From the IMG/VR virus record IMGVR_UViG_2974610597_000001: 64,000 bases of DNA. One strand, 5' to 3'. Below the pieces are notes generated by a model. It saw only the letters and a program-made list of their open reading frames with translations. It made no database searches and was not told the DNA's origin. Made by a program: the position numbers and the translations under genes. This DNA is from Escherichia virus ESCO5 (lineage: Duplodnaviria; Heunggongvirae; Uroviricota; Caudoviricetes). Shown here in pieces: positions 1 to 20,452 of the stretch (position 1 is its first letter; the number at the start of each line of letters is the position of its first letter).

Positions 1-1451
1 CTAGGGGTACTTCAACTTCTGCTGCTGGTTCTACATTAGCAATGAGTGCTGACCTTGGAGAAAACTGGAATTACTTAAGATTTCCTAACAACGTTCATCA
101 TACAAACCTACCATTTGCAAAAGTTGGTAACTACCTTTATATCTTTGGTACAGAACGTTCATTTGGAGAATGGGAAGGAGAAGAACTAGATAATAGATAT
201 AAAGGTACGTATCCTCGAACGTTTATGTGCAAGATTAATGTATCTGCATGGCCTGCATCTTTATCCGATGTTCAATGGTTTAATATCACCGATCAGATGT
301 ATCAAGGGCATATTGTTAATTCTGCATGTGGTGTTGGTTCGGTATGTGTTAAAGATGGTTGGTTATATTATATCTTTGGAGGCGAAGATTTCTTATCTCC
401 TTGGTCTATTGGGGATAATAGTAAAAAATTATGGTACAAGCACGATGGTCATCCAGCCGATTTATATAGCTATAGACTAAAGATTACCGAACATGATTTT
501 GTATCACGTGATTTCAAATATGGAGCTACGCCAAACCGTACATTGCCTGTATCTATGGGTACAGATGGGGTAAGGCATGTCTCAGCCCCTGTAACTTTTG
601 ATAATGATGTGCAAGTACACTCTTTAACAGTTACTGGTCTTGAGCATGATGGGACACAACAATCTGCCGTTAGAATAAAATTAGATGGTGATTATGGGGT
701 TGTTGCAAAAAATGTCCCAATAAAAAATCCTTCTGAACAGCGACTAATCTTATGTGGAGGAGAAACTCCTTACGTTACTGATGGATCGCTATTACAACTA
801 TATGGTTCAAACCATACGTATCCAAACAGAGCAGTTTTATATGCCCCAGGAGGAGCATATACCCAAAATAATTTCATGCCATATTTAGATGGACAAGTTG
901 CATTAGGTGGTGCATCTAACAGATGGTCAGAAGTGTACGCATCTACAGGAACCATTAATACTTCAGATGGAACATTAAAAACTAAACCTACAGAGATTGA
1001 AGATATTTTACTGAAAGCGTGGGAAGATATTCATGTAATCTCTTATCAATGGCTGAGTGCTATCGCGGAGAAAGGAGATTCTGCGCGTATTCATTTTGGT
1101 GTTATAGCTCAAGATGTAAGAGATATTCTGATTAATTATGGTTTAATGGATGAAAATAGCACTGATTGTAAGTATGCTTTTCTGTGTTATGATGAATACC
1201 CTGCTATGTACGATAGTGTTGTTACGGGACAAAAAGAAATCCCTTTATTTGATGATGAAGGGAATGTTGTAATTGATGAAGAAGGTAATCCAGTAACAAT
1301 CGTAGAAGATGTTGTAGAAACTATCGAAATAATTCCAGCAGGATCGCGATGGGGTATCCGCGCTGACCAAATGTTTTTTATTGAGATGGCTTATCAACGT
1401 AAAAAGTTAAAAGCTCTTGAAGAAAGACTTGCAACCCTGGAAAGTAAATAA
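1..1451 (+). CDS. Tail fiber/tailspike protein, C-terminal part with intramolecular-chaperone (peptidase S74-like) self-cleaving domain; 5' end outside window
   Basis: Frame of ORF 42..1451 stays open back to base 3, so gene is 5'-truncated. C-terminus (HFGVIAQDVRDILINYG ... coiled-coil KKLKALEERLATLESK) resembles the autoproteolytic C-terminal chaperone of phage L-shaped tail fibers/endosialidases. Confidence 0.55.
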   Translation, partial: RGTSTSAAGSTLAMSADLGENWNYLRFPNNVHHTNLPFAKVGNYLYIFGTERSFGEWEGEELDNRYKGTYPRTFMCKINVSAWPASLSDVQWFNITDQMYQGHIVNSACGVGSVCVKDGWLYYIFGGEDFLSPWSIGDNSKKLWYKHDGHPADLYSYRLKITEHDFVSRDFKYGATPNRTLPVSMGTDGVRHVSAPVTFDNDVQVHSLTVTGLEHDGTQQSAVRIKLDGDYGVVAKNVPIKNPSEQRLILCGGETPYVTDGSLLQLYGSNHTYPNRAVLYAPGGAYTQNNFMPYLDGQVALGGASNRWSEVYASTGTINTSDGTLKTKPTEIEDILLKAWEDIHVISYQWLSAIAEKGDSARIHFGVIAQDVRDILINYGLMDENSTDCKYAFLCYDEYPAMYDSVVTGQKEIPLFDDEGNVVIDEEGNPVTIVEDVVETIEIIPAGSRWGIRADQMFFIEMAYQRKKLKALEERLATLESK

Positions 1452-1499
1452 TACCGCTTAGGCGGTATTTCAATCTTTATATCTCACTTAGAGGTACTC

Positions 1500-1763
1500 A
1501 TGGTTAAAGAGAAAAACGGTTTTAAAAAATTTATTCGCGGAATGTTCTGCACTTACCCCGGCAACGGGGTAAGCTCTACGAAAGTCTGGAACGCTGTAGG
1601 CATGTCGGTTATGACAGGCATGTTTATCTTTTTAGGAATAGAAAAAGAAATTCCTGAATGGATGGGTTGGGCTTTTGTTTTCATGATAACCCCTTCTCGC
1701 CTCATGAAAAATCTTATTGATTTACGTTGGGGCAGATCACAATCTACCAAAGAGGATGACTAA
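1500..1763 (+). CDS. Small hypothetical protein, likely membrane-associated
   Basis: 87-aa ORF with hydrophobic stretch, between structural genes; stop overlaps next start. Confidence 0.3.
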   Translation: MVKEKNGFKKFIRGMFCTYPGNGVSSTKVWNAVGMSVMTGMFIFLGIEKEIPEWMGWAFVFMITPSRLMKNLIDLRWGRSQSTKEDD

Positions 1764-3250
1764 TGGACGAATATGGTTTGACAGATGCGGGATTTGTAAT
1801 CCCGACTTTTGACGATGTTTTAAACAACTACATGACAGCAGTAAAAAACACATTTGGTGCAGATGCAGCCACTTCGGAAGATACTGTGATCGGACAACTG
1901 TTTAGAATAATTGCATACACAGATTACACATTGTGGGAAGGTATGCAAGGGGTTTATAATACTCAAACACTGGATGGTGCAGAAGGTATTTATCTTGACG
2001 AAATCTTTTCTAAACGTGGTTTCTATCGAGCAGGGGCAGCAGCAAGTACAGGTTATGCATATGTTAAAAGTAATAACAAAGCAGCTTGGACTTACGAGTT
2101 AGGCACAGATATTTACTTCAACTCTGATAGCGATATGAACTACTATGTTAGCACACCAACTATGTTGAATGCTAAGATTGCAGCTTATCAAATTTCTCGT
2201 GCTAATGCCACTGCTACAGGTGTTCCAAATATTACTTTTTATGCACAAAGTGCGATAGATGGAGGACTAAACAGTAAAACACTTGCACCTGGTTCTTCTA
2301 CATTTATAGCCGATCTTGAAACTTTTATCAAGGCAAACTTAACAGAGGCTGATCGTAGTCTTGTATTTTCTGATTCTGGTAACTTGTCAATTGGTTTTAC
2401 TTCTTTAACCAGTGATACTCCAGTGGGACTAGTAACTCCTATCAAATTTTATGCTAGTGTTCCAGTTGGAACCAAATGGAGTGAAATTCCGGTAGTTGCA
2501 GCAGAGAAAGGATACAATCCGGTGGGTGTGGAGTCTATTACAGGGATATCTTCTACCTTTACAGGTTATCTTGATAGTGGTAACTTCTATTCGTTTTCTC
2601 CTGGTCGAGATGTTGAGACAGATGCAGAATTCCGCTCTCGTTTCAATGACAACGTTGACGAAGCTAACGCAGGGACACGAGCAGCTATTGTGAAAGCTCT
2701 GTTACTTACAGATGGTGTTACTAAGGTGAAGATTTATGATAACCCTACGTTACATGATCAAGAACATGCTCCAGCTATGACTTTCCAGACTATAGTCTAT
2801 GGAGGGAGTGCTGAAGAAGTTGCTGAAGTTATTTACAAAACTAAACCAATCAACAGTTTGACACATGGAACAACTAACATAACTGTTACAACGGAAGACG
2901 GAGGACAAGAAATTATTCGTTTTTCTCCTGGTGCTTCTGCTACGTATTCCGTAAAACTTGTTTATCAAACTGTCAACGGAACAACTTTAAGTGGAACAGA
3001 AAAACAAAACATTGTAGAAGCTTTACAAAACCTGCAAGCTTACTTTGAATTAGGTTCTTCAGTAACGAACGATCAAATCAAAGGTGTTATTTATGCAGCA
3101 CTTGCTTTTGGACGCTTGACTTCTCTTCGTGTTTATGTTAAACTTAATACTGAGGATGACAGTAAATATACAGAGAATAATATAGTTCCTGCTTATAATG
3201 TTGTCCCTTCTTTTGACCTTGATAACATTTCTTACGAGTATGGAGTGTAA
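1763..3250 (+). CDS. Virion structural protein (tail/baseplate component)
   Basis: 495-aa ORF, Ser/Thr/Asn-rich, in tightly packed plus-strand structural operon; no enzymatic motif. Confidence 0.4.
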   Translation: MDEYGLTDAGFVIPTFDDVLNNYMTAVKNTFGADAATSEDTVIGQLFRIIAYTDYTLWEGMQGVYNTQTLDGAEGIYLDEIFSKRGFYRAGAAASTGYAYVKSNNKAAWTYELGTDIYFNSDSDMNYYVSTPTMLNAKIAAYQISRANATATGVPNITFYAQSAIDGGLNSKTLAPGSSTFIADLETFIKANLTEADRSLVFSDSGNLSIGFTSLTSDTPVGLVTPIKFYASVPVGTKWSEIPVVAAEKGYNPVGVESITGISSTFTGYLDSGNFYSFSPGRDVETDAEFRSRFNDNVDEANAGTRAAIVKALLLTDGVTKVKIYDNPTLHDQEHAPAMTFQTIVYGGSAEEVAEVIYKTKPINSLTHGTTNITVTTEDGGQEIIRFSPGASATYSVKLVYQTVNGTTLSGTEKQNIVEALQNLQAYFELGSSVTNDQIKGVIYAALAFGRLTSLRVYVKLNTEDDSKYTENNIVPAYNVVPSFDLDNISYEYGV

Positions 3251-3252
3251 AA

Positions 3253-3882
3253 ATGGCAGTGAGTGTTGACCATGTAACAACTTGGGCCAGTATCAATGAA
3301 GATGTTAAAAACCTTCTGATTGAAGATTTTAAATCTTCTCCTAACATTGTCAAGCTCCTCTACATCGTATCCAGTGAAAAGCAAAAGATAGATCAGGCAA
3401 TGATCTATCTTGCTAAACACCGCTTGATCTCCACAGCCACAGGCAAATACCTAGATATCTTAGGAGAAGAAATGGGGATCGAACGTAATGGCTCTGATGA
3501 TGAAGAGTATAGAACAATATTAAAAATCAGGGCTTACCGCGTAGCCTCATCGGGGACTCGTGGTGACATAATTGATATCTTCGCCCGTTTCACAGGAACA
3601 GAGCGTGAAACGCTTAATACTTACGTAGGTTTGAATAAAACCTTTGATGTGTTTTTCTACAACCTGTGTCTTCAATCTGATCAAGCTTTAGAGCAGTTGC
3701 TAAGTGTTTTCCCTATTATTAGTAGCTACCGTCTTGGAGCAAAAGCAGGATCAGCTTTTGGTTTTAGTTCTTATTATGCTGCCAAACCGCCTCATGGTAT
3801 TGGTGGTTTAGGTTCCCTGTACATGGAATCTACTGGGGATGAAACAGGACGCATGTGTACGCTTCTCAAGCAAATAGATTAA
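3253..3882 (+). CDS. Hypothetical structural protein
   Basis: 209-aa ORF 2 bp after previous stop, same operon. Confidence 0.35.
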   Translation: MAVSVDHVTTWASINEDVKNLLIEDFKSSPNIVKLLYIVSSEKQKIDQAMIYLAKHRLISTATGKYLDILGEEMGIERNGSDDEEYRTILKIRAYRVASSGTRGDIIDIFARFTGTERETLNTYVGLNKTFDVFFYNLCLQSDQALEQLLSVFPIISSYRLGAKAGSAFGFSSYYAAKPPHGIGGLGSLYMESTGDETGRMCTLLKQID

Positions 3883-3891
3883 GGAGTTTAA

Positions 3892-4953
3892 ATGGCGAAG
3901 CCAATATATTATCCTGACTGGGCTACACAAACTGTAACGCTCCCAGGAACTTTAAACACAAACAAAATTAGACCTAAAGAAACCATCCGCACAATTGGTA
4001 TGGATTATGGTCAAATCATGACTTGCGAAGAAATGAACTGGATTCTTAATAATATCGGTTTATGGATTCGCTATTTGGTGGATGACTTTCTTCCAACTTT
4101 ACCTGATACTTACTTGCCTTTAATTGGAACTAAGATTACAATGGCAGGTGATGCTACTGGTGAGGCTACTTGGAATGGTAATAAAGAAGTTACTTTATCT
4201 ATCCAAGTTCAAGATAATAGTCATAATCACTTGTCGGCAAACATTACAGATGCCACTAGTTCAACAGTAACACCAAACGTGTTGGTAAAACGTGATGCAG
4301 GTGGTGCTATTTACGGTGGTGATATTTATGTTAATGGCACTTCCACAACAGATCCTGCAACACTGTTCTTCAAAAACTTTGCAGGACAAACGAATGGTGA
4401 GATTTCTGCCGAGTATCAAAGCGGAGGTCAGCTTTACATCTATCGTAGAAATCCTAGCACAGGTAGTGTATCGGCAGGTGTTCGTTTATATGATGCAGGT
4501 TATGTTCTAATAGATAATCCAAGATCAAACAGTGGACAAGACACTTCTAACGGAAATGCTTTAGTTCGTTTAGATTATCTGAACTCTCGTTTGACTTCCC
4601 TTCAGAATACATTGCAGACGAATATTAACACTGTTCAAAACAACTTGAATAATGTTAACAACAACCTCTCTTCTCGTATAAACAATGTAGAAAGTAATCA
4701 TCAAAGTCAGATTACAAATAACTACAACTATGCTAACGGAACCTTTGTAAGAGATATTCGTTATACTAGCCAAGGTGTGTATTATCCACCAGGGAACGAG
4801 GTTTCTTGGACTTATATCTGTTCTTCTGGTTATGTTCTTTCTGGTATTATCGTACAGGAAACAGGACGTAGCTCTGCGGATAACATCGGTGGGGTTTACT
4901 TCAAACGCCTCCAGCGCAACGTTAACGGAAACTGGTACGATATTGGAGGCTAA
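3892..4953 (+). CDS. Tail fiber protein (short fiber)
   Basis: 353 aa; Asn/Gln-rich heptad region (LQNTLQTNINTVQNNLNNVNNNLSSRINNVESN) typical of fiber shafts. Confidence 0.45.
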   Translation: MAKPIYYPDWATQTVTLPGTLNTNKIRPKETIRTIGMDYGQIMTCEEMNWILNNIGLWIRYLVDDFLPTLPDTYLPLIGTKITMAGDATGEATWNGNKEVTLSIQVQDNSHNHLSANITDATSSTVTPNVLVKRDAGGAIYGGDIYVNGTSTTDPATLFFKNFAGQTNGEISAEYQSGGQLYIYRRNPSTGSVSAGVRLYDAGYVLIDNPRSNSGQDTSNGNALVRLDYLNSRLTSLQNTLQTNINTVQNNLNNVNNNLSSRINNVESNHQSQITNNYNYANGTFVRDIRYTSQGVYYPPGNEVSWTYICSSGYVLSGIIVQETGRSSADNIGGVYFKRLQRNVNGNWYDIGG

Positions 4954-16084: not shown

Positions 16085-16276
16085 TTAATCTTCCTCCAGA
16101 TCAATTTCATTATAGCAATGTATGCAGTAGCCATCGTTGTGCATATGTTGTTCATAAGACATATCTTTACCACAAGACCAACAACGAATATCGCCATCGT
16201 CCCATTCACGTTCTTCTTCGCCTTCAAATGCATCTGGTAGGTAAGGCATACCAAGACAATCTAAATCGTAATGCAT
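16085..16276 (-). CDS. Small zinc-ribbon protein
   Basis: Start refined to ATG at 16276 (AGGAGG 6 nt upstream; the longer ORF 16085..16360 would run through the upstream hairpin); CWSCG ... CIHC pattern. Confidence 0.35.
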   Translation of the reverse strand: MHYDLDCLGMPYLPDAFEGEEEREWDDGDIRCWSCGKDMSYEQHMHNDGYCIHCYNEIDLEED

Positions 16277-16283
16277 ATCTCCT

Positions 16284-16308
16284 CCTATAAAGGGGCAGAA
16301 GCCCCTTA
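16284..16308 (-). terminator. Stem-loop/weak terminator downstream of DNA polymerase gene
   Basis: AAGGGGC-TTCT-GCCCCTT hairpin followed by short T tract on minus strand. Confidence 0.35.
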
Positions 16309-16325
16309 TAAAACAATATGTTAGA

Positions 16326-19300
16326 TCAATGACAGGATGCCCAGGAATTACCCACGTCATATCCGGCAGTAAGCTGAACGTTAAGATTGTAAAATTCTCC
16401 AGCCTTAGTAACAGCTAAAGCAGCAAGTTCACCTGCCCGACTATAAGCTGTAAACCATCCACCTTTGGGAGATTCATGAATGTTAGCCCAAATTTGCCCT
16501 GTCTCTTTTTCCTTATTATGCTTCCATTCTTCAACTTTAGCAAGGCATTCTTTATCAATTTTCTTTTGTTCTTCAGGATCGTCTACTTTCTTCCAACCTA
16601 ATGATTCAGGTGAAAACCATTTGAATTCTACAAGGTTACGAGAAACTTCAAGCTGGGCTTCATCGTGGTATGCAATCATTTGTTGCACGAAGTCTTTATT
16701 CTTCCAGTCATCTTTAAAGAAGTCAACACTTAGTCCTTCTTCTTCGATCATATCGTCATAAATAACCATTGCACGTTTAGCACAGATAACCCCACCACTT
16801 TGGAACAGAGAGTTAAGAATCGCGTGAGCAGAACGAGTAGGAACCTTACGACCGTCAATACCCAAAACATACTGTTTACCAGTCTTAACCCAGAAATCGT
16901 TTAAACGTTCTTTAAGACGCGCCAGTGGGAATGCAGCTTCCCAGAAAGCATCGAACACCAGTTGCCCTGTAAACTTATCGCTACCAATTGTTTTAGCAAC
17001 CTTGTCGGCTTGTGCACCATAGGTAATACCATACTTAACAGATTTAGCAGGACTACGTTCAAATTTACGTCCAATAGTTTCAGTGATACGTTTTGCCATC
17101 ATGGTATGAACATCGTTAGGCTTCTCTAACAAGAGAGCGTTACAGTATTCATGAGGCTCCGGTTCGTAGCGCCAACAGTTTCCTGTGATGGTAATGCAGT
17201 CTTTCTGACGCATGACCCACGTACCAAGTTCTGTTTGTGGACACCAAACATCCTCTACACCCCACTCTTCAATAGTCAAACTTTGAACAGGAATGTGAGA
17301 GCGGTTAGCCAATGTTACCACTTTTACTTTCTGCTCTTTTGTATTGAAAGCTACAGAGATATTGCCTCCATGCACCAGGTACGAGGCAGTTAAAGCTGCT
17401 TCAAAAAGTTCACCTGGGTTCTGCGCCCAACGCCAAACAGGTTTTTGTTTATGTTCATGCCAGTAACCATCTGCAATCAAGAAACCTTCCAAGAAAGCTA
17501 CACGCTCGGCATGAGACATATTAACTACACGCTCTACCCACGGAACATCCCATTTACCTTGTTGAACAGAAGTTAAACTATTTACCTGATCTTGTTCCAT
17601 GTTAAATGGAGCATTACAAATAATATTATCTCCTGTGCAAAGCTCGGCAGTTGTTCTGACTTTAGGCACATAAGTATTCCCTTTACTACGGGTATTAACA
17701 TACCAACGGTGATCTGCTGTTGCACGGTAAGTGTGTGATTTCCCTTTAATCTCAAACGTCTTACTATTTTTATAGAAGACCTTACCTTTTACTTTAGTCC
17801 ATTCTTTCAGACCTGTTTCAGCATTGTACCCTAAAATCTCATCCCCTTCCTTCAGGTCGTGATATCCTACCCAACCTTTACGAGTCAAAGCTTGAGCATC
17901 CATCGGCACACAGTAATGCGACTCAATCTTTGCTTCCAAAGAGTCGAAGTCATAACCGATCTGGAAATATTTAGGAACTTCTACACCAAACAAGTTACGC
18001 ATCTCCCATCCAAACAAAGATGTGACACGAGGGATATTGGCTACAGACCTATGCTTCATACGAGAGGTTGCAGCATCACATGTAGCGGCTGGGGTAGGAA
18101 TACGCCCATCTGCCCTTACTGCGGCTAAGAAACCTTTATCGTATTCTTGATCTTCTTCATCTTCTTCCCAATCAGCACCGCCACCTAAAATAGAGTTCCT
18201 ACGATGCTTATACGTTAAGTATTCTACAATCTGAGTAGCATAAGGAAATTTCTCACCCAAAGCTTGCAGGTTAGGACAGATTTCTTTTTCCTGACCTTTG
18301 GTAAAACATGGGTTAGTCAATACTTTAAGACCGCGACCTTTACCTTTTGCTATACGCTCTTGAATCTTCCTTTCCAAGGTTTCCGGTGCGCACTCCAGAT
18401 GATCACAACGGTCCTGACAAAAATTAGAAGATAAAGTTTGCTCAACGTAAGCTCGAATACCTTTCTGAAGTTCTTCCTCACTCTTTTTAATCTTGGTGCC
18501 AGATTTAAGAGTCAAATCTTTATCTTTATATTCCGATGGTACCCAACCTAATCCTACAAGCCAGTTTTTAATATGGGTTGTATCGTTCAATGTCGCAGGG
18601 ATGTTAGGATCACACAGAGGCTCATCTGCTGCAACTGGCAGTTTCCACTCTTTCCCCAACATAACTAACCACCAATCGCCATCCCTCTCTTCCAAATGAC
18701 CATCATGTTTTTTAGCAAAATTGATCATATGGTTAGTTGGTTCGAGGTTCTTTTTAATTTGCAATTTAGGCGGAATAAAAGCTTTAAGATAACCTTTTGT
18801 TGCTGGTTTAGGTGGCAAAATAGGCTCAACGAGTAAACGAAGACGCTCCATTTCTGCATCCAAAAAAGCAAGGTTCTCTTCTGCTTGCTTCATATTAAAA
18901 GCAAACCCACGGTGTTCCTGGCGCGTGATAATGTCTGCTACACGTTGTTCAAGTTCAAATGGACCTTCCCATTTATCATAATCACCCCATTCTTCCATAA
19001 GGTAGTTATATACGCTCGTATTGGCTTTGTTGTCATAGATACAGTAATAAAGCATATCCGCAGCAAAAGTCTTAAATCGATCTTCTTCTGGAATCTCTTT
19101 ACGGAAATCTATTTTTACATCACCACCTGCTTTTCGAGAAAGTGCTGCCAAGCTATGTCCTGATTTGCCCTCAATCTTTCGATCTGGGTTTAACACTTTA
19201 CTCAAAATCAAGGAGTCAATAAGTTTTACCTTATTTTTGCCCCACGTATTATATTTAACACTGTAATCTAATCCATAAAACAGTTTTGTAGCCAACCAGT

Positions 19301-19658
19301 CGTAGTTGATACCGTTGTGAGCCACAGCCATTTCAACCAGATATTCAGGCTTGTCTTTAAAATAACCTTCATGATTAATAAAGTCTGGGAAATCTTTTAG
19401 TTGAAAATGCGTGTAATCTTGCGCCACATACTCTTTAAGAACATATGTATATTTACCATCTGACTCTTCATAAGGACGCCCATCAAAGATGTATTTAGGG
19501 CCATCGTGGAAAGCTACTATTTCTCCTGTTTCATGGTTCTCTAAGACAATACAGTGCATTTGAAATGTGTCTTTGAGACGATAAGGACTAGCTAAATAAT
19601 CAATAGTGTCATTATTCAACAATCCGTTTGCTTCAATATCCCATGTAAACTTACTCAC
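16326..19658 (-). CDS. Family A DNA polymerase with 3'-5' exonuclease domain, interrupted by an intein
   Basis: 1110 aa; exo motif WDIEANGL; pol motif A IGYDFDSLEAKI; motif B RSPAKSVKYGITYG; motif C AYHDE; about 245-aa insertion between motifs A and B. Confidence 0.85.
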   Translation of the reverse strand: MSKFTWDIEANGLLNNDTIDYLASPYRLKDTFQMHCIVLENHETGEIVAFHDGPKYIFDGRPYEESDGKYTYVLKEYVAQDYTHFQLKDFPDFINHEGYFKDKPEYLVEMAVAHNGINYDWLATKLFYGLDYSVKYNTWGKNKVKLIDSLILSKVLNPDRKIEGKSGHSLAALSRKAGGDVKIDFRKEIPEEDRFKTFAADMLYYCIYDNKANTSVYNYLMEEWGDYDKWEGPFELEQRVADIITRQEHRGFAFNMKQAEENLAFLDAEMERLRLLVEPILPPKPATKGYLKAFIPPKLQIKKNLEPTNHMINFAKKHDGHLEERDGDWWLVMLGKEWKLPVAADEPLCDPNIPATLNDTTHIKNWLVGLGWVPSEYKDKDLTLKSGTKIKKSEEELQKGIRAYVEQTLSSNFCQDRCDHLECAPETLERKIQERIAKGKGRGLKVLTNPCFTKGQEKEICPNLQALGEKFPYATQIVEYLTYKHRRNSILGGGADWEEDEEDQEYDKGFLAAVRADGRIPTPAATCDAATSRMKHRSVANIPRVTSLFGWEMRNLFGVEVPKYFQIGYDFDSLEAKIESHYCVPMDAQALTRKGWVGYHDLKEGDEILGYNAETGLKEWTKVKGKVFYKNSKTFEIKGKSHTYRATADHRWYVNTRSKGNTYVPKVRTTAELCTGDNIICNAPFNMEQDQVNSLTSVQQGKWDVPWVERVVNMSHAERVAFLEGFLIADGYWHEHKQKPVWRWAQNPGELFEAALTASYLVHGGNISVAFNTKEQKVKVVTLANRSHIPVQSLTIEEWGVEDVWCPQTELGTWVMRQKDCITITGNCWRYEPEPHEYCNALLLEKPNDVHTMMAKRITETIGRKFERSPAKSVKYGITYGAQADKVAKTIGSDKFTGQLVFDAFWEAAFPLARLKERLNDFWVKTGKQYVLGIDGRKVPTRSAHAILNSLFQSGGVICAKRAMVIYDDMIEEEGLSVDFFKDDWKNKDFVQQMIAYHDEAQLEVSRNLVEFKWFSPESLGWKKVDDPEEQKKIDKECLAKVEEWKHNKEKETGQIWANIHESPKGGWFTAYSRAGELAALAVTKAGEFYNLNVQLTAGYDVGNSWASCH
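17178..17912 (-). mobile_element. Intein (Hint domain with LAGLIDADG homing-endonuclease motif) inside DNA polymerase
   Basis: Residues about 583-827 of the polymerase: starts Cys (CVPMDAQALT, block A), block B TADHRWY, LAGLIDADG-like LEGFLIADGY, ends ITGN followed by Cys; flanks ESHY / CWRYEPEPHEY..NDVH align to the contiguous T7-type motif A to motif B linker. Confidence 0.55.
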
Positions 19659-20452
19659 TATTCCTCCTTTCTAATGTTCTCCAGAACCCACTGAAGTTCT
19701 TTTAAACTTAAACTTCTTACTCCCGCAGTTTTACTAGCTTCAGCTTTAAGTAACGGGTAAGCCTCAATGATACGCGTTTTAAGATCAGAAGTCAAGGCTT
19801 TTAAAAAATAGGTAGATGCTTCAGATAAAGAATCTTCTTCTGATAACACTTTACCTGCACTTGCTCCCGCTCTCCTAACGGCTATATCGTAGTCTTTACT
19901 GTTACCTAATACGAATAGTCGATTCTCTCCTAAAACAACGGGAGAACGCTTCTCGTTGCGTTTAATCCATATCTGGAATACACAAGGAACATCCCAAGGT
20001 TCTCCATGAAGAATAAAAGATCCTTTTGGACATTCTTCTTCGTAAAGAAGATGCATGTGGGGATTTAGTTTGTGTGCAAAAAAGATTTTTTGAAATGTGC
20101 GAGGCAAGATAAAACAAATACCACCTTCGTTATCCAACATTTCAGCACAATGGTTAAAGAACTTAATGGCAAGACTAGCATTTTTTCCAAACGGAGGATT
20201 ACCGACAAAAGCAGTTACACTACCAACAGACTCAACAGATTGAGCTAAAAAATCTGCCTCAATACAATCTTCAAACTTAGGGTCAATATCAAAAGAAGTT
20301 ATGTTTTTAAAACAAGAAGAGAAAGCTCCTTCTCCCGCAGATGGTTCTACGTAGTTAGCTTCCTCTCCAAAAATTTCTTTGATCTTATCACATAAGAACC
20401 CCGCATAAGCGGGGTTAGTGTAATATTGATCAAGTGTGTTCAACTTGCTCAA
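19658..20452 (-). CDS. DNA N6-adenine (or N4-cytosine) methyltransferase
   Basis: 264 aa; SAM motif I VEPSAGEGAF and catalytic motif IV NPPF (D/N-P-P-Y/F). Confidence 0.6.
   Translation of the reverse strand: MSKLNTLDQYYTNPAYAGFLCDKIKEIFGEEANYVEPSAGEGAFSSCFKNITSFDIDPKFEDCIEADFLAQSVESVGSVTAFVGNPPFGKNASLAIKFFNHCAEMLDNEGGICFILPRTFQKIFFAHKLNPHMHLLYEEECPKGSFILHGEPWDVPCVFQIWIKRNEKRSPVVLGENRLFVLGNSKDYDIAVRRAGASAGKVLSEEDSLSEASTYFLKALTSDLKTRIIEAYPLLKAEASKTAGVRSLSLKELQWVLENIRKEE

Follow-up and report, generated by a model that had tools for sequence, protein, structure and literature searches.

A probably functional and mobile intein with a single LAGLIDADG motif in the family A DNA polymerase of coliphage ESCO5

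The window analysed here, a stretch of 64,000 nucleotides (nt) from Escherichia virus ESCO5 (IMG/VR record IMGVR_UViG_2974610597_000001), carries on its minus strand a family A DNA polymerase gene whose reading frame contains an additional segment of 245 codons. Phage ESCO5, to whose sequence the window is 100% identical, belongs to the genus Phapecoctavirus of the subfamily Stephanstirmvirinae, and its record annotates the open reading frame (ORF) as 'DNA polymerase I'. We consider it highly probable that the segment is a functional, mobile intein residing in an essential polymerase of a lytic coliphage. The parts of the gene, in window positions, are listed below; residues of the intein are numbered from its first Cys.

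16326..19658, minus strand: ORF encoding the precursor of the family A DNA polymerase, 1110 amino acids (aa), GTG start, ESCO5 HOR27_gp219, Pfam DNA_pol_A
17913..19658, minus strand: N-extein, aa 1-582, with the 3'-5' exonuclease region and the polymerase up to motif A (...IGYDFDSLEAKIESHY)
17178..17912, minus strand: intein, 245 aa, precursor aa 583-827 (exact indel, Hint fold, family profile)
17601..17912, minus strand: N-terminal half of the Hint domain, intein aa 1-104, with block A CVPMDAQALT; the profile matches solved inteins here
17910-17912, minus strand: Cys1, start of block A CVPMDAQALT
17703..17720, minus strand: block B TADHRW, with Thr65 (B:7), His68 (B:10) and Trp70 (B:12), by family conservation
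17298..17600, minus strand: endonuclease-like inserted domain (intein aa 105-205) consisting of one LAGLIDADG half-domain, arranged alpha-beta-beta-alpha-beta-beta
17463..17498, minus strand: sole LAGLIDADG motif, AFLEGFLIADGY, by conservation and weak PF14528 matches
17469-17471, minus strand: putative catalytic Asp148 of this motif
17178..17297, minus strand: C-terminal portion of the Hint domain (intein aa 206-245), which holds blocks F and G (EDVWCPQTELGTWVMRQKDCITITGN)
17241-17243, minus strand: Cys224, position F:4
17178-17186, minus strand: Thr243-Gly244-Asn245, the intein end
17175..17177, minus strand: Cys+1, with which the C-extein begins, also present in intein-less alleles
16326..17177, minus strand: C-extein, aa 828-1110 and stop, CWRYEPEPHEY..., with motif B (PAKSVKYGITYGAQ) and motif C (YHDEAQ)

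Translation of 17178..17912 gives 245 residues, CVPMDAQALT...QKDCITITGN, preceded by ...KIESHY / DFDSLEAKIESHY and followed by CWRYEPEPHEY...NDVH. A first-pass annotation of the window had proposed an intein at exactly these coordinates, and the motifs it quoted (CVPMDAQALT, TADHRW, AFLEGFLIADGY and the flanks ESHY and CWRY) are all found in the translation. The polymerases of phages phAPEC8 and ESCO13 are 865 aa long and are without exactly these 735 nt (245 codons, in frame). When the segment is left out, the ESCO5 protein differs from that of phAPEC8 at 1 of 865 residues and from that of ESCO13 at 3 of 865, and the remaining gene is 97.6-98.0% identical to both at the DNA level. Alleles as close as these exclude the scenario of a native, lineage-wide domain, which the first-pass annotation had named as refuting its proposal, and they define the insertion exactly. 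The Cys following the insert occurs in the uninterrupted alleles too; since insert and downstream extein each begin with TGT, the boundary at the DNA level is ambiguous by 3 nt.

Removal of the segment also restores the polymerase. Following in-silico splicing, Pfam DNA_pol_A matches one contiguous stretch (residues 504-764, 51 bits), as against two stretches and 43.8 bits in the precursor. The palm and fingers region of the spliced protein aligns with T7 DNA polymerase at E=5e-18 and the junction is gap-free, GYDFDSLEAKIESHY/CWRY lying opposite T7 GIDASGLELRCLAHF/MARF (here and below a slash marks the junction). The proposed correspondence of the flanks to the uninterrupted linker of T7-type polymerases is thus borne out, and so is the proposed split between motifs A and B: the insertion site lies 8 residues past the acidic cluster of motif A (DFDSLE) and upstream of motif B (PAKSVKYGITYGAQ). 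In short, we have an in-frame insert that is missing in near homologues and whose removal leaves a colinear host sequence, as expected of an intein.

The fold points the same way. An AlphaFold2 model of the 245 residues (predicted local distance difference test, pLDDT, 78; predicted template modelling score, pTM, 0.77) finds 43 matches in the PDB at E<=1e-3, and the fifty matches listed are all inteins, bacterial intein-like domains or Hedgehog Hint domains. The TliVMA and PhoVMA inteins, which bear endonucleases, rank highest together with PI-SceI; mini-inteins come next. Modelling of the excised segment, a check suggested by the first-pass annotation, thus gives a predicted Hint fold.

Searches with single sequences were less telling, a PDB search with the insert being suggestive at best and an NCBIfam scan of it matching no model. 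With a profile built from the segment together with related sequences, solved inteins are matched at the sequence level, namely the Spl DnaX mini-intein (3.5e-5), NrdJ-1 (1.9e-4) and AceL NrdHF (2.9e-4). The alignment to intein profiles suggested by the first-pass annotation thus had a divided outcome, in that curated models fail and the family-built profile succeeds at E of about 1e-4 to 1e-5. The same profile retrieves 7277 cluster representatives at E<=1e-3, and members of other intein families are probably among the weaker of them. At E<=1e-30 it retrieves 526; with so many close relatives the segment is no chance pattern.

Among these relatives, the same element with the same ends is found in unrelated host proteins. 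It starts CVP.D..ALT and ends DVWCP.TE.GTWVMRQ...ITGN, followed by Ser, Thr or Cys. The hosts include a small protein with the junction FDVYP/SAYANGW and other family A polymerases, invaded at motif B and at R.SH/SPNMQNIP; two further polymerases carry the element at the ESCO5 site itself (VQGHY/TWRYDN). Some relatives are mini-inteins of 142-163 aa, from which only the middle domain is gone. Conservation was counted over 114 family members 140-270 aa long, while position 1 and position +1 were scored in 143 family inteins taken from the best hits. Cys1, Thr65, His68 and Cys224 are invariant (114 of 114), and Trp70 (113), Thr243 (112), Gly244 (111) and Asn245 (111) nearly so. In the larger set Cys1 is present in 143 of 143, and residue +1 is Ser in 76, Thr in 41 and Cys in 21. 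The residues expected at splice junctions, Cys1, Thr65-x-x-His68, Asn245 and Cys+1, are all there in ESCO5, so that fold, family and catalytic residues agree with the original proposal of an intein with a Cys start and a block B-like TADHRW.

A few further observations concern the family and the window. Its commonest host is the small protein with the junction FDVYP/SAYANGWA, one such member of which carries PF19846. Some metagenomic proteins (P0035, P0036) are interrupted twice by inteins of the family, those of P0035 spanning residues 1350-1723 and 1774-2097. A six-frame scan of the window with the family hidden Markov models (HMMs) revealed no second intein. A group I intron or a free-standing endonuclease gene was ruled out, the ORF being continuous and in frame, and so was a bacterial intein-like domain, given the presence of Asn plus Cys+1.

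Several observations weigh against a functional, mobile intein. Curated models do not recognize the insert at their thresholds: Pfam Intein_splicing (PF14890) reaches 16.3 bits where its cut-off demands 35.8 (E=0.009), and LAGLIDADG_3 gives E=0.13, likewise sub-threshold. Splicing of the ESCO5 intein is a prediction from phage viability, purifying selection and a spliced relative. Asn cyclisation would have to do without either of its two usual assisting histidines, the penultimate residue being Gly and the block F His region reading GTW. For the endonuclease part alone, Foldseek E-values are >=0.06 and non-significant. We know of no characterised intein endonuclease that is not twice its size. 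The insertion site displays no palindromic symmetry beyond chance, its best value of 6/11 being equalled by 73% of gene positions. Finally, mobility could be due to ordinary phage recombination or to neighbouring HNH endonucleases.

One alternative would be that the segment is no intein at all and stays in the mature polymerase, either as an accessory domain specific to the lineage or as an insertion that is dead. The sub-threshold scores of the curated intein models would fit this, as would the plain annotation of ESCO5 and its close relatives as DNA polymerase. It is nevertheless extremely improbable in view of the intein-less alleles of near-identical phages, the predicted Hint fold, the conservation of every splice-site residue and the recurrence of the same termini in unrelated proteins, always ...TGN and then Ser, Thr or Cys. 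Moreover, an insertion retained 8 residues past the motif A cluster would part palm from fingers.

We therefore return to the intein and to its splicing. Translation of the gene would yield a 1110-aa precursor, from which the Hint domain would excise 245 residues and join ...ESHY to CWRY..., giving an 865-aa T7-type polymerase. All 35 intein-bearing phage records (35/35) represent sequenced genomes of phages, which in nearly every case are cultured isolates; as the insertion lies beside the active site, splicing is very probably efficient.

The absence of the penultimate His deserves a closer look, for the first-pass annotation had called the Gly-Asn end non-canonical and had suspected unusual splicing chemistry. 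Non-canonical it is: position G:6 is Gly in 111 of the 114 family members, and His at G:6 is common in inteins without defining them. As a sign of impaired splicing it does not stand, because the trait is family-wide and has a spliced precedent. A distant relative, the intein in the RDF of mycobacteriophage Bethlehem, splices to completion with a penultimate Gly (Kelley 2016, mBio, PMC5050341), which answers the worry about the C-terminus. Changing this residue (Gly316) to His slowed splicing to hours, and phage class 1 inteins are often without the penultimate His (PMC5050341). The endonuclease of the same intein was toxic in E. coli (PMC5050341).

We extracted the Bethlehem RDF intein from gp52 of AY500153 (stretch L006, 12578-14296, minus strand). 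It consists of 317 aa, CSWTNARAVT...TANHRV...EVWCLRVPNGRFFIEDGGKIHLTGN/S, and scores 51 bits with the ESCO5 family HMM over blocks A and B, the LAGLIDADG region and blocks F and G, a distant similarity. Like the ESCO5 intein it is phage-borne, starts with Cys1, has TxxH, V-W-C in block F, T-G-N before the nucleophile and a LAGLIDADG-type sequence; Cys F:4 and Thr G:5 are combined with Cys1 in both, although B:12 is Val in Bethlehem and Trp in ESCO5. The Bethlehem intein differs from the 245-aa ESCO5 intein in its larger endonuclease region, its phosphoesterase/RDF host gene, its Ser+1 and its actinobacteriophage host.

The combination of these residues raises the question of the splicing class. 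Class 3 inteins are defined by Trp B:12, Cys F:4 and Thr G:5 and by the lack of a nucleophile at position 1, with Ser or Thr usual at +1 (PMC2807308, PMC3196547, PMC7891396); they have lost the position-1 nucleophile and do not conserve Thr B:7 (PMC7891396). ESCO5 has the full triplet (W70, C224, T243). For comparison we used the class 3 prototype, the 'MP-Be DnaB' intein, which corresponds to residues 141-481 of Bethlehem gp11 (stretch L007, 7260-9971); as the ORF sits just upstream of the portal gene, gp11 is presumably the large terminase. This stretch of gp11 has Ser62, His65, Trp67, Cys320, Phe330 and Thr339-His340-Asn341-Thr+1, in full agreement with the published prototype. In a global profile alignment Thr65/His68/Trp70 of ESCO5 fall on Ser62/His65/Trp67, Cys224 falls on Cys320 and Thr243/Gly244/Asn245 fall on Thr339/His340/Asn341. 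The last 26 residues are free of gaps, and the spacing from Cys to Asn is 21 in both inteins. A local-mode HMM alignment failed to align blocks F and G with the prototype. Since the correspondence of C, T and N comes from the global alignment only, the assignment of Cys224 to F:4 is positional, based on this alignment and on spacing and not on superposed coordinates.

Resemblance to class 3 inteins (MP-Be 'DnaB', that is Bethlehem TerL, Msm DnaB-1, MchDnaB1 and AceL NrdHF) thus extends to the triplet, the Cys-to-Asn spacing and the Hint fold, and class 3 has been proposed to originate from phages. Unlike them, the ESCO5 family has invariant Cys1 and Thr B:7 and has Gly instead of His at G:6, and ESCO5 itself has Cys+1. 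By published definitions the ESCO5 intein is not class 3, because the position-1 nucleophile is present (Cys1 in 143 of 143). Nor does it conform fully to class 1: Cys1, Thr B:7 and His B:10 are present and invariant (use of Cys1 as first nucleophile being a prediction), while F:4, where class 1 inteins have Asp or another non-nucleophile, is the invariant Cys224.

Given that splicing occurs, it probably starts at Cys1 as in class 1, to judge from residue conservation, as a dispensable Cys1 or Thr B:7 would not have stayed invariant in 143 and 114 diverged members, respectively. In the most likely route, Cys1 would undergo an N-S acyl shift aided by Thr65 and His68, the N-extein would be transferred onto Cys+1, Asn245 would cyclise without the aid of a penultimate His, and an S-N shift would make the peptide bond; Cys224, in the usual place of the block F Asp, may assist or serve as a relay. 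We regard it as unlikely that the intein follows the class 3 route, in which Cys224 rather than Cys1 would be the nucleophile at the N-terminal junction, so that a branched thioester would arise at block F and then be handed on to Cys+1. This route would account for a Trp-Cys-Thr signature lying on W67, C320 and T339 of the prototype and near-invariant in the family (113, 114 and 112 of 114); Ser or Thr, as found at +1 in class 3, occupies this position in 117 of the 143 members. The class 3 mini-inteins 6zgq, 6rix and 6bs8 are among the best structural matches (template modelling score, TM, by target 0.72-0.78), and three of the 37 Trp-Cys-Thr inteins of Tori 2010 have Ser1 or Cys1 (PMC2807308). 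It leaves unexplained why Cys1 (143/143) and Thr B:7 (114/114) persist when class 3 inteins have lost the former and do not conserve the latter (PMC7891396); the related RDF intein was taken as class 1 by Kelley 2016 (PMC5050341), and the placement at F:4 comes from alignment and spacing.

The middle of the intein is occupied by the endonuclease-like domain. Modelled alone, residues 105-205 (pLDDT 86.7) are arranged as helix-helix-strand-strand-helix-strand-strand, a predicted LAGLIDADG fold in which the motif helix ends in a conserved acidic residue followed by Gly; the position of Asp148 is Asp or Glu, and that of Gly149 is Gly, in 107 of 114 members each. The values tabulated beside this model are:

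WhiA (two structures): 7.7, 7.2
TliVMA intein: 7.7
I-Tsp061I: 6.9
PI-PkoII: 6.1
I-DmoI: 5.8
E-DreI (I-DmoI/I-CreI chimera): 5.7
PI-SceI: 5.7
I-CeuI: 5.4

A sequence-profile search of the PDB with this part was weak and its top match spurious (a Sel1 repeat protein). The weak sequence matches of residues 105-205 fall in the second sub-domain of TliVMA, I-AniI and I-HjeMI. The LAGLIDADG homing endonuclease announced in the first-pass annotation is accordingly present as motif and fold, but in the form of one motif and one half-domain per chain, unlike the characterised intein endonucleases with their two motifs. The position of the domain is nonetheless familiar: as in PI-SceI, PI-PfuI, PI-PkoII and TliVMA/PhoVMA, the Hint domain is interrupted by a LAGLIDADG fold at the same topological place, and the best match to the whole model is 7qsu (E=5e-7, TM by query 0.69). 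PI-SceI-type enzymes are pseudo-dimeric proteins of 360-540 aa with two motifs and often an extra DNA-recognition region, whereas ESCO5 has one motif in about 100 aa, which aligns with the second sub-domain of the two-motif enzymes. Single-motif, homodimeric enzymes such as I-CreI, I-MsoI and I-CeuI are free-standing or intron-encoded and have extra C-terminal helices, whereas the ESCO5 domain sits in a Hint domain; the targets of I-CreI-type enzymes are pseudo-palindromic, and the ESCO5 site is not. Our literature search on one-motif intein endonucleases found nothing relevant.

The most informative comparison is with the 324-aa intein of phages nieznany, ukendt, nepoznato, phiWec187 and AV126, which belongs to the same host gene, phage genus and intein family (33% identity).

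2501-3472 of stretch L005 (NC_052659.1; polymerase gene 605-4174 of the same stretch): nieznany intein, KYG/CVPVD...ITLTGN/CTYGAQ

It shares the signature C1, TxxHxW, V-F-C and L-T-G-N with the ESCO5 intein and differs from it in its place inside motif B (KYG/C.../CTYGAQ) and in having two LAGLIDADG motifs. Compared with it, ESCO5 keeps the second sub-domain and is without the first. At the nieznany-type junction, Ile is changed to Cys at +1. At the ESCO5 site these phages have Thr for Cys, and the flank downstream of it is strongly diverged (27 of 90 nt).

Between ESCO5 and the Justusliebigvirus phages phi92/SD2, the intein displays 55 synonymous and 6 non-synonymous differences, so that the ratio of non-synonymous to synonymous divergence (dN/dS) is 0.022 overall and 0.039 in the middle (endonuclease) domain. 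We lean, though narrowly, towards an active endonuclease, presumably a homodimer, because the domain is under purifying selection, keeps its acidic residue and occurs in this architecture at many sites. With a single motif per chain, cutting would require excised inteins to pair as a homodimer, and this is the most weakly supported step of the scheme. The intein would spread at the DNA level by gene conversion between co-infecting phages, the trigger most likely being a cut by the LAGLIDADG domain in intein-less polymerase alleles.

It is possible, and to us less convincing, that a splicing-competent intein carries a non-cutting remnant and persists or spreads by general recombination or with the help of neighbouring free-standing endonucleases. 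A single half-domain would be natural for a remnant, as would a target site without symmetry; the related 324-aa intein of nieznany has two motifs, the first of which ESCO5 lacks, endonuclease-free mini-inteins exist in the same family, and HNH genes lie directly downstream of the polymerase in nieznany and SD2. A remnant would hardly be expected to remain under purifying selection that matches the splicing domain in strength (dN/dS 0.039), nor to keep its acidic residue in 107 of 114 members that share about 20-50% identity. The one-motif size class also dominates, with 106 of 136 family inteins from the best 150 hits, a count biased because the query profile was built from that class, and its occurrence in many genes and sites implies repeated invasion. 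ESCO5, for its part, has no HNH gene adjoining the polymerase gene.

A free-standing HNH endonuclease gene lies directly 3' of the polymerase in nieznany (4204-4782 of stretch L005) and in SD2 (4115-4711 of stretch L004). It is missing from ESCO5 (matching place about 16100-16325), phAPEC8, ESCO13 and phi92. It is a second mobile element at this locus and may aid gene conversion in the polymerase region.

An active, mobile intein is also consistent with the history of the element. The exteins of ESCO5 and phi92/SD2 are saturated at synonymous sites (proportion of synonymous differences, pS, 0.72; synonymous divergence, dS, about 2.5), whereas dS of the intein is 0.48; DNA identity is 92% for the intein and 72-80% for the exteins. 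Since it is far less diverged than its surroundings, the intein must have crossed between Phapecoctavirus and Justusliebigvirus after their divergence. The intein of Klebsiella phage KP13-16 (90.6% protein identity) is as saturated at synonymous sites as its exteins, which implies long residence in the subfamily.

An intein more than 90% identical to that of ESCO5 occurs in 35 of 72 matching phage records, and at least 10 listed records, including Phapecoctavirus nieznany, ukendt and nepoznato, instead carry the related 324-aa motif B intein. Within 90 nt on either side of the site, intein-less ESCO13 differs from ESCO5 at only 2 positions. In phAPEC8, also intein-less, the same interval (17088-17177 and 17913-18002) contains 19 differences in 180 nt, all synonymous, as compared with 2.4% over the whole gene, and most of them match the intein-plus allele of phi92/SD2. 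This pattern looks like co-conversion tracts or a past precise loss of the intein. Such mosaic flanks fit repeated gene conversion at the site, short of proof of homing.

At its start, the polymerase gene touches another gene. Its GTG shares one base with the TAG stop (TAGTG, 19656-19660) of an upstream gene at window positions 19658-20452, a putative N6-adenine methyltransferase, and this overlap suggests translational coupling.

As to prior knowledge, neither the ESCO5 record nor the members of its 90% protein cluster mention an intein. In one GenBank entry, that of phage SD2 (PQ821640.1), the orthologue is labelled 'intein-containing DNA polymerase precursor'. According to a 2024 paper, inteins had not so far been reported from coliphages (PMC11162368), and our literature search found no paper describing this polymerase intein.

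The ESCO5 intein, together with the second intein at motif B, is common in the Stephanstirmvirinae. Judging from its residues, it appears unusual at the level of its family, which combines Cys1 with the Trp-Cys-Thr triplet, an obligate Gly-Asn end and a one-motif endonuclease. One may speculate, with little confidence, that it represents a very large, mostly phage-borne clade in which the full class 1 apparatus (Cys1, Thr-x-x-His) is linked with the class 3 triplet, with Gly as obligatory penultimate residue and with a LAGLIDADG domain of one motif. Such a clade would correspond, among living inteins, to the 'standard phage intein' that Tori and Perler proposed as the origin of class 3, would have two competent thiol nucleophiles for the N-terminal junction or a relay from Cys1 over Cys224 to +1, and would contain the first homodimeric LAGLIDADG enzyme borne by an intein. 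Being small and compact, with Cys1, Cys F:4, Thr-Gly-Asn and Cys+1, the intein is in any case relevant to the relation between classes 3 and 1, and also to the cyclisation of Asn without either assisting His.

For annotation, the finding means that the mature enzyme of ESCO5 would have 865 aa and not 1110 aa, while ESCO5 and most of the 34 other intein-bearing records speak of a DNA polymerase or a hypothetical protein. The intein may serve as a tool for protein engineering. Finally, ESCO5 and ESCO13, two near-identical and easily grown E. coli phages, one with and one without the intein, offer a handy system for following homing in mixed infections.

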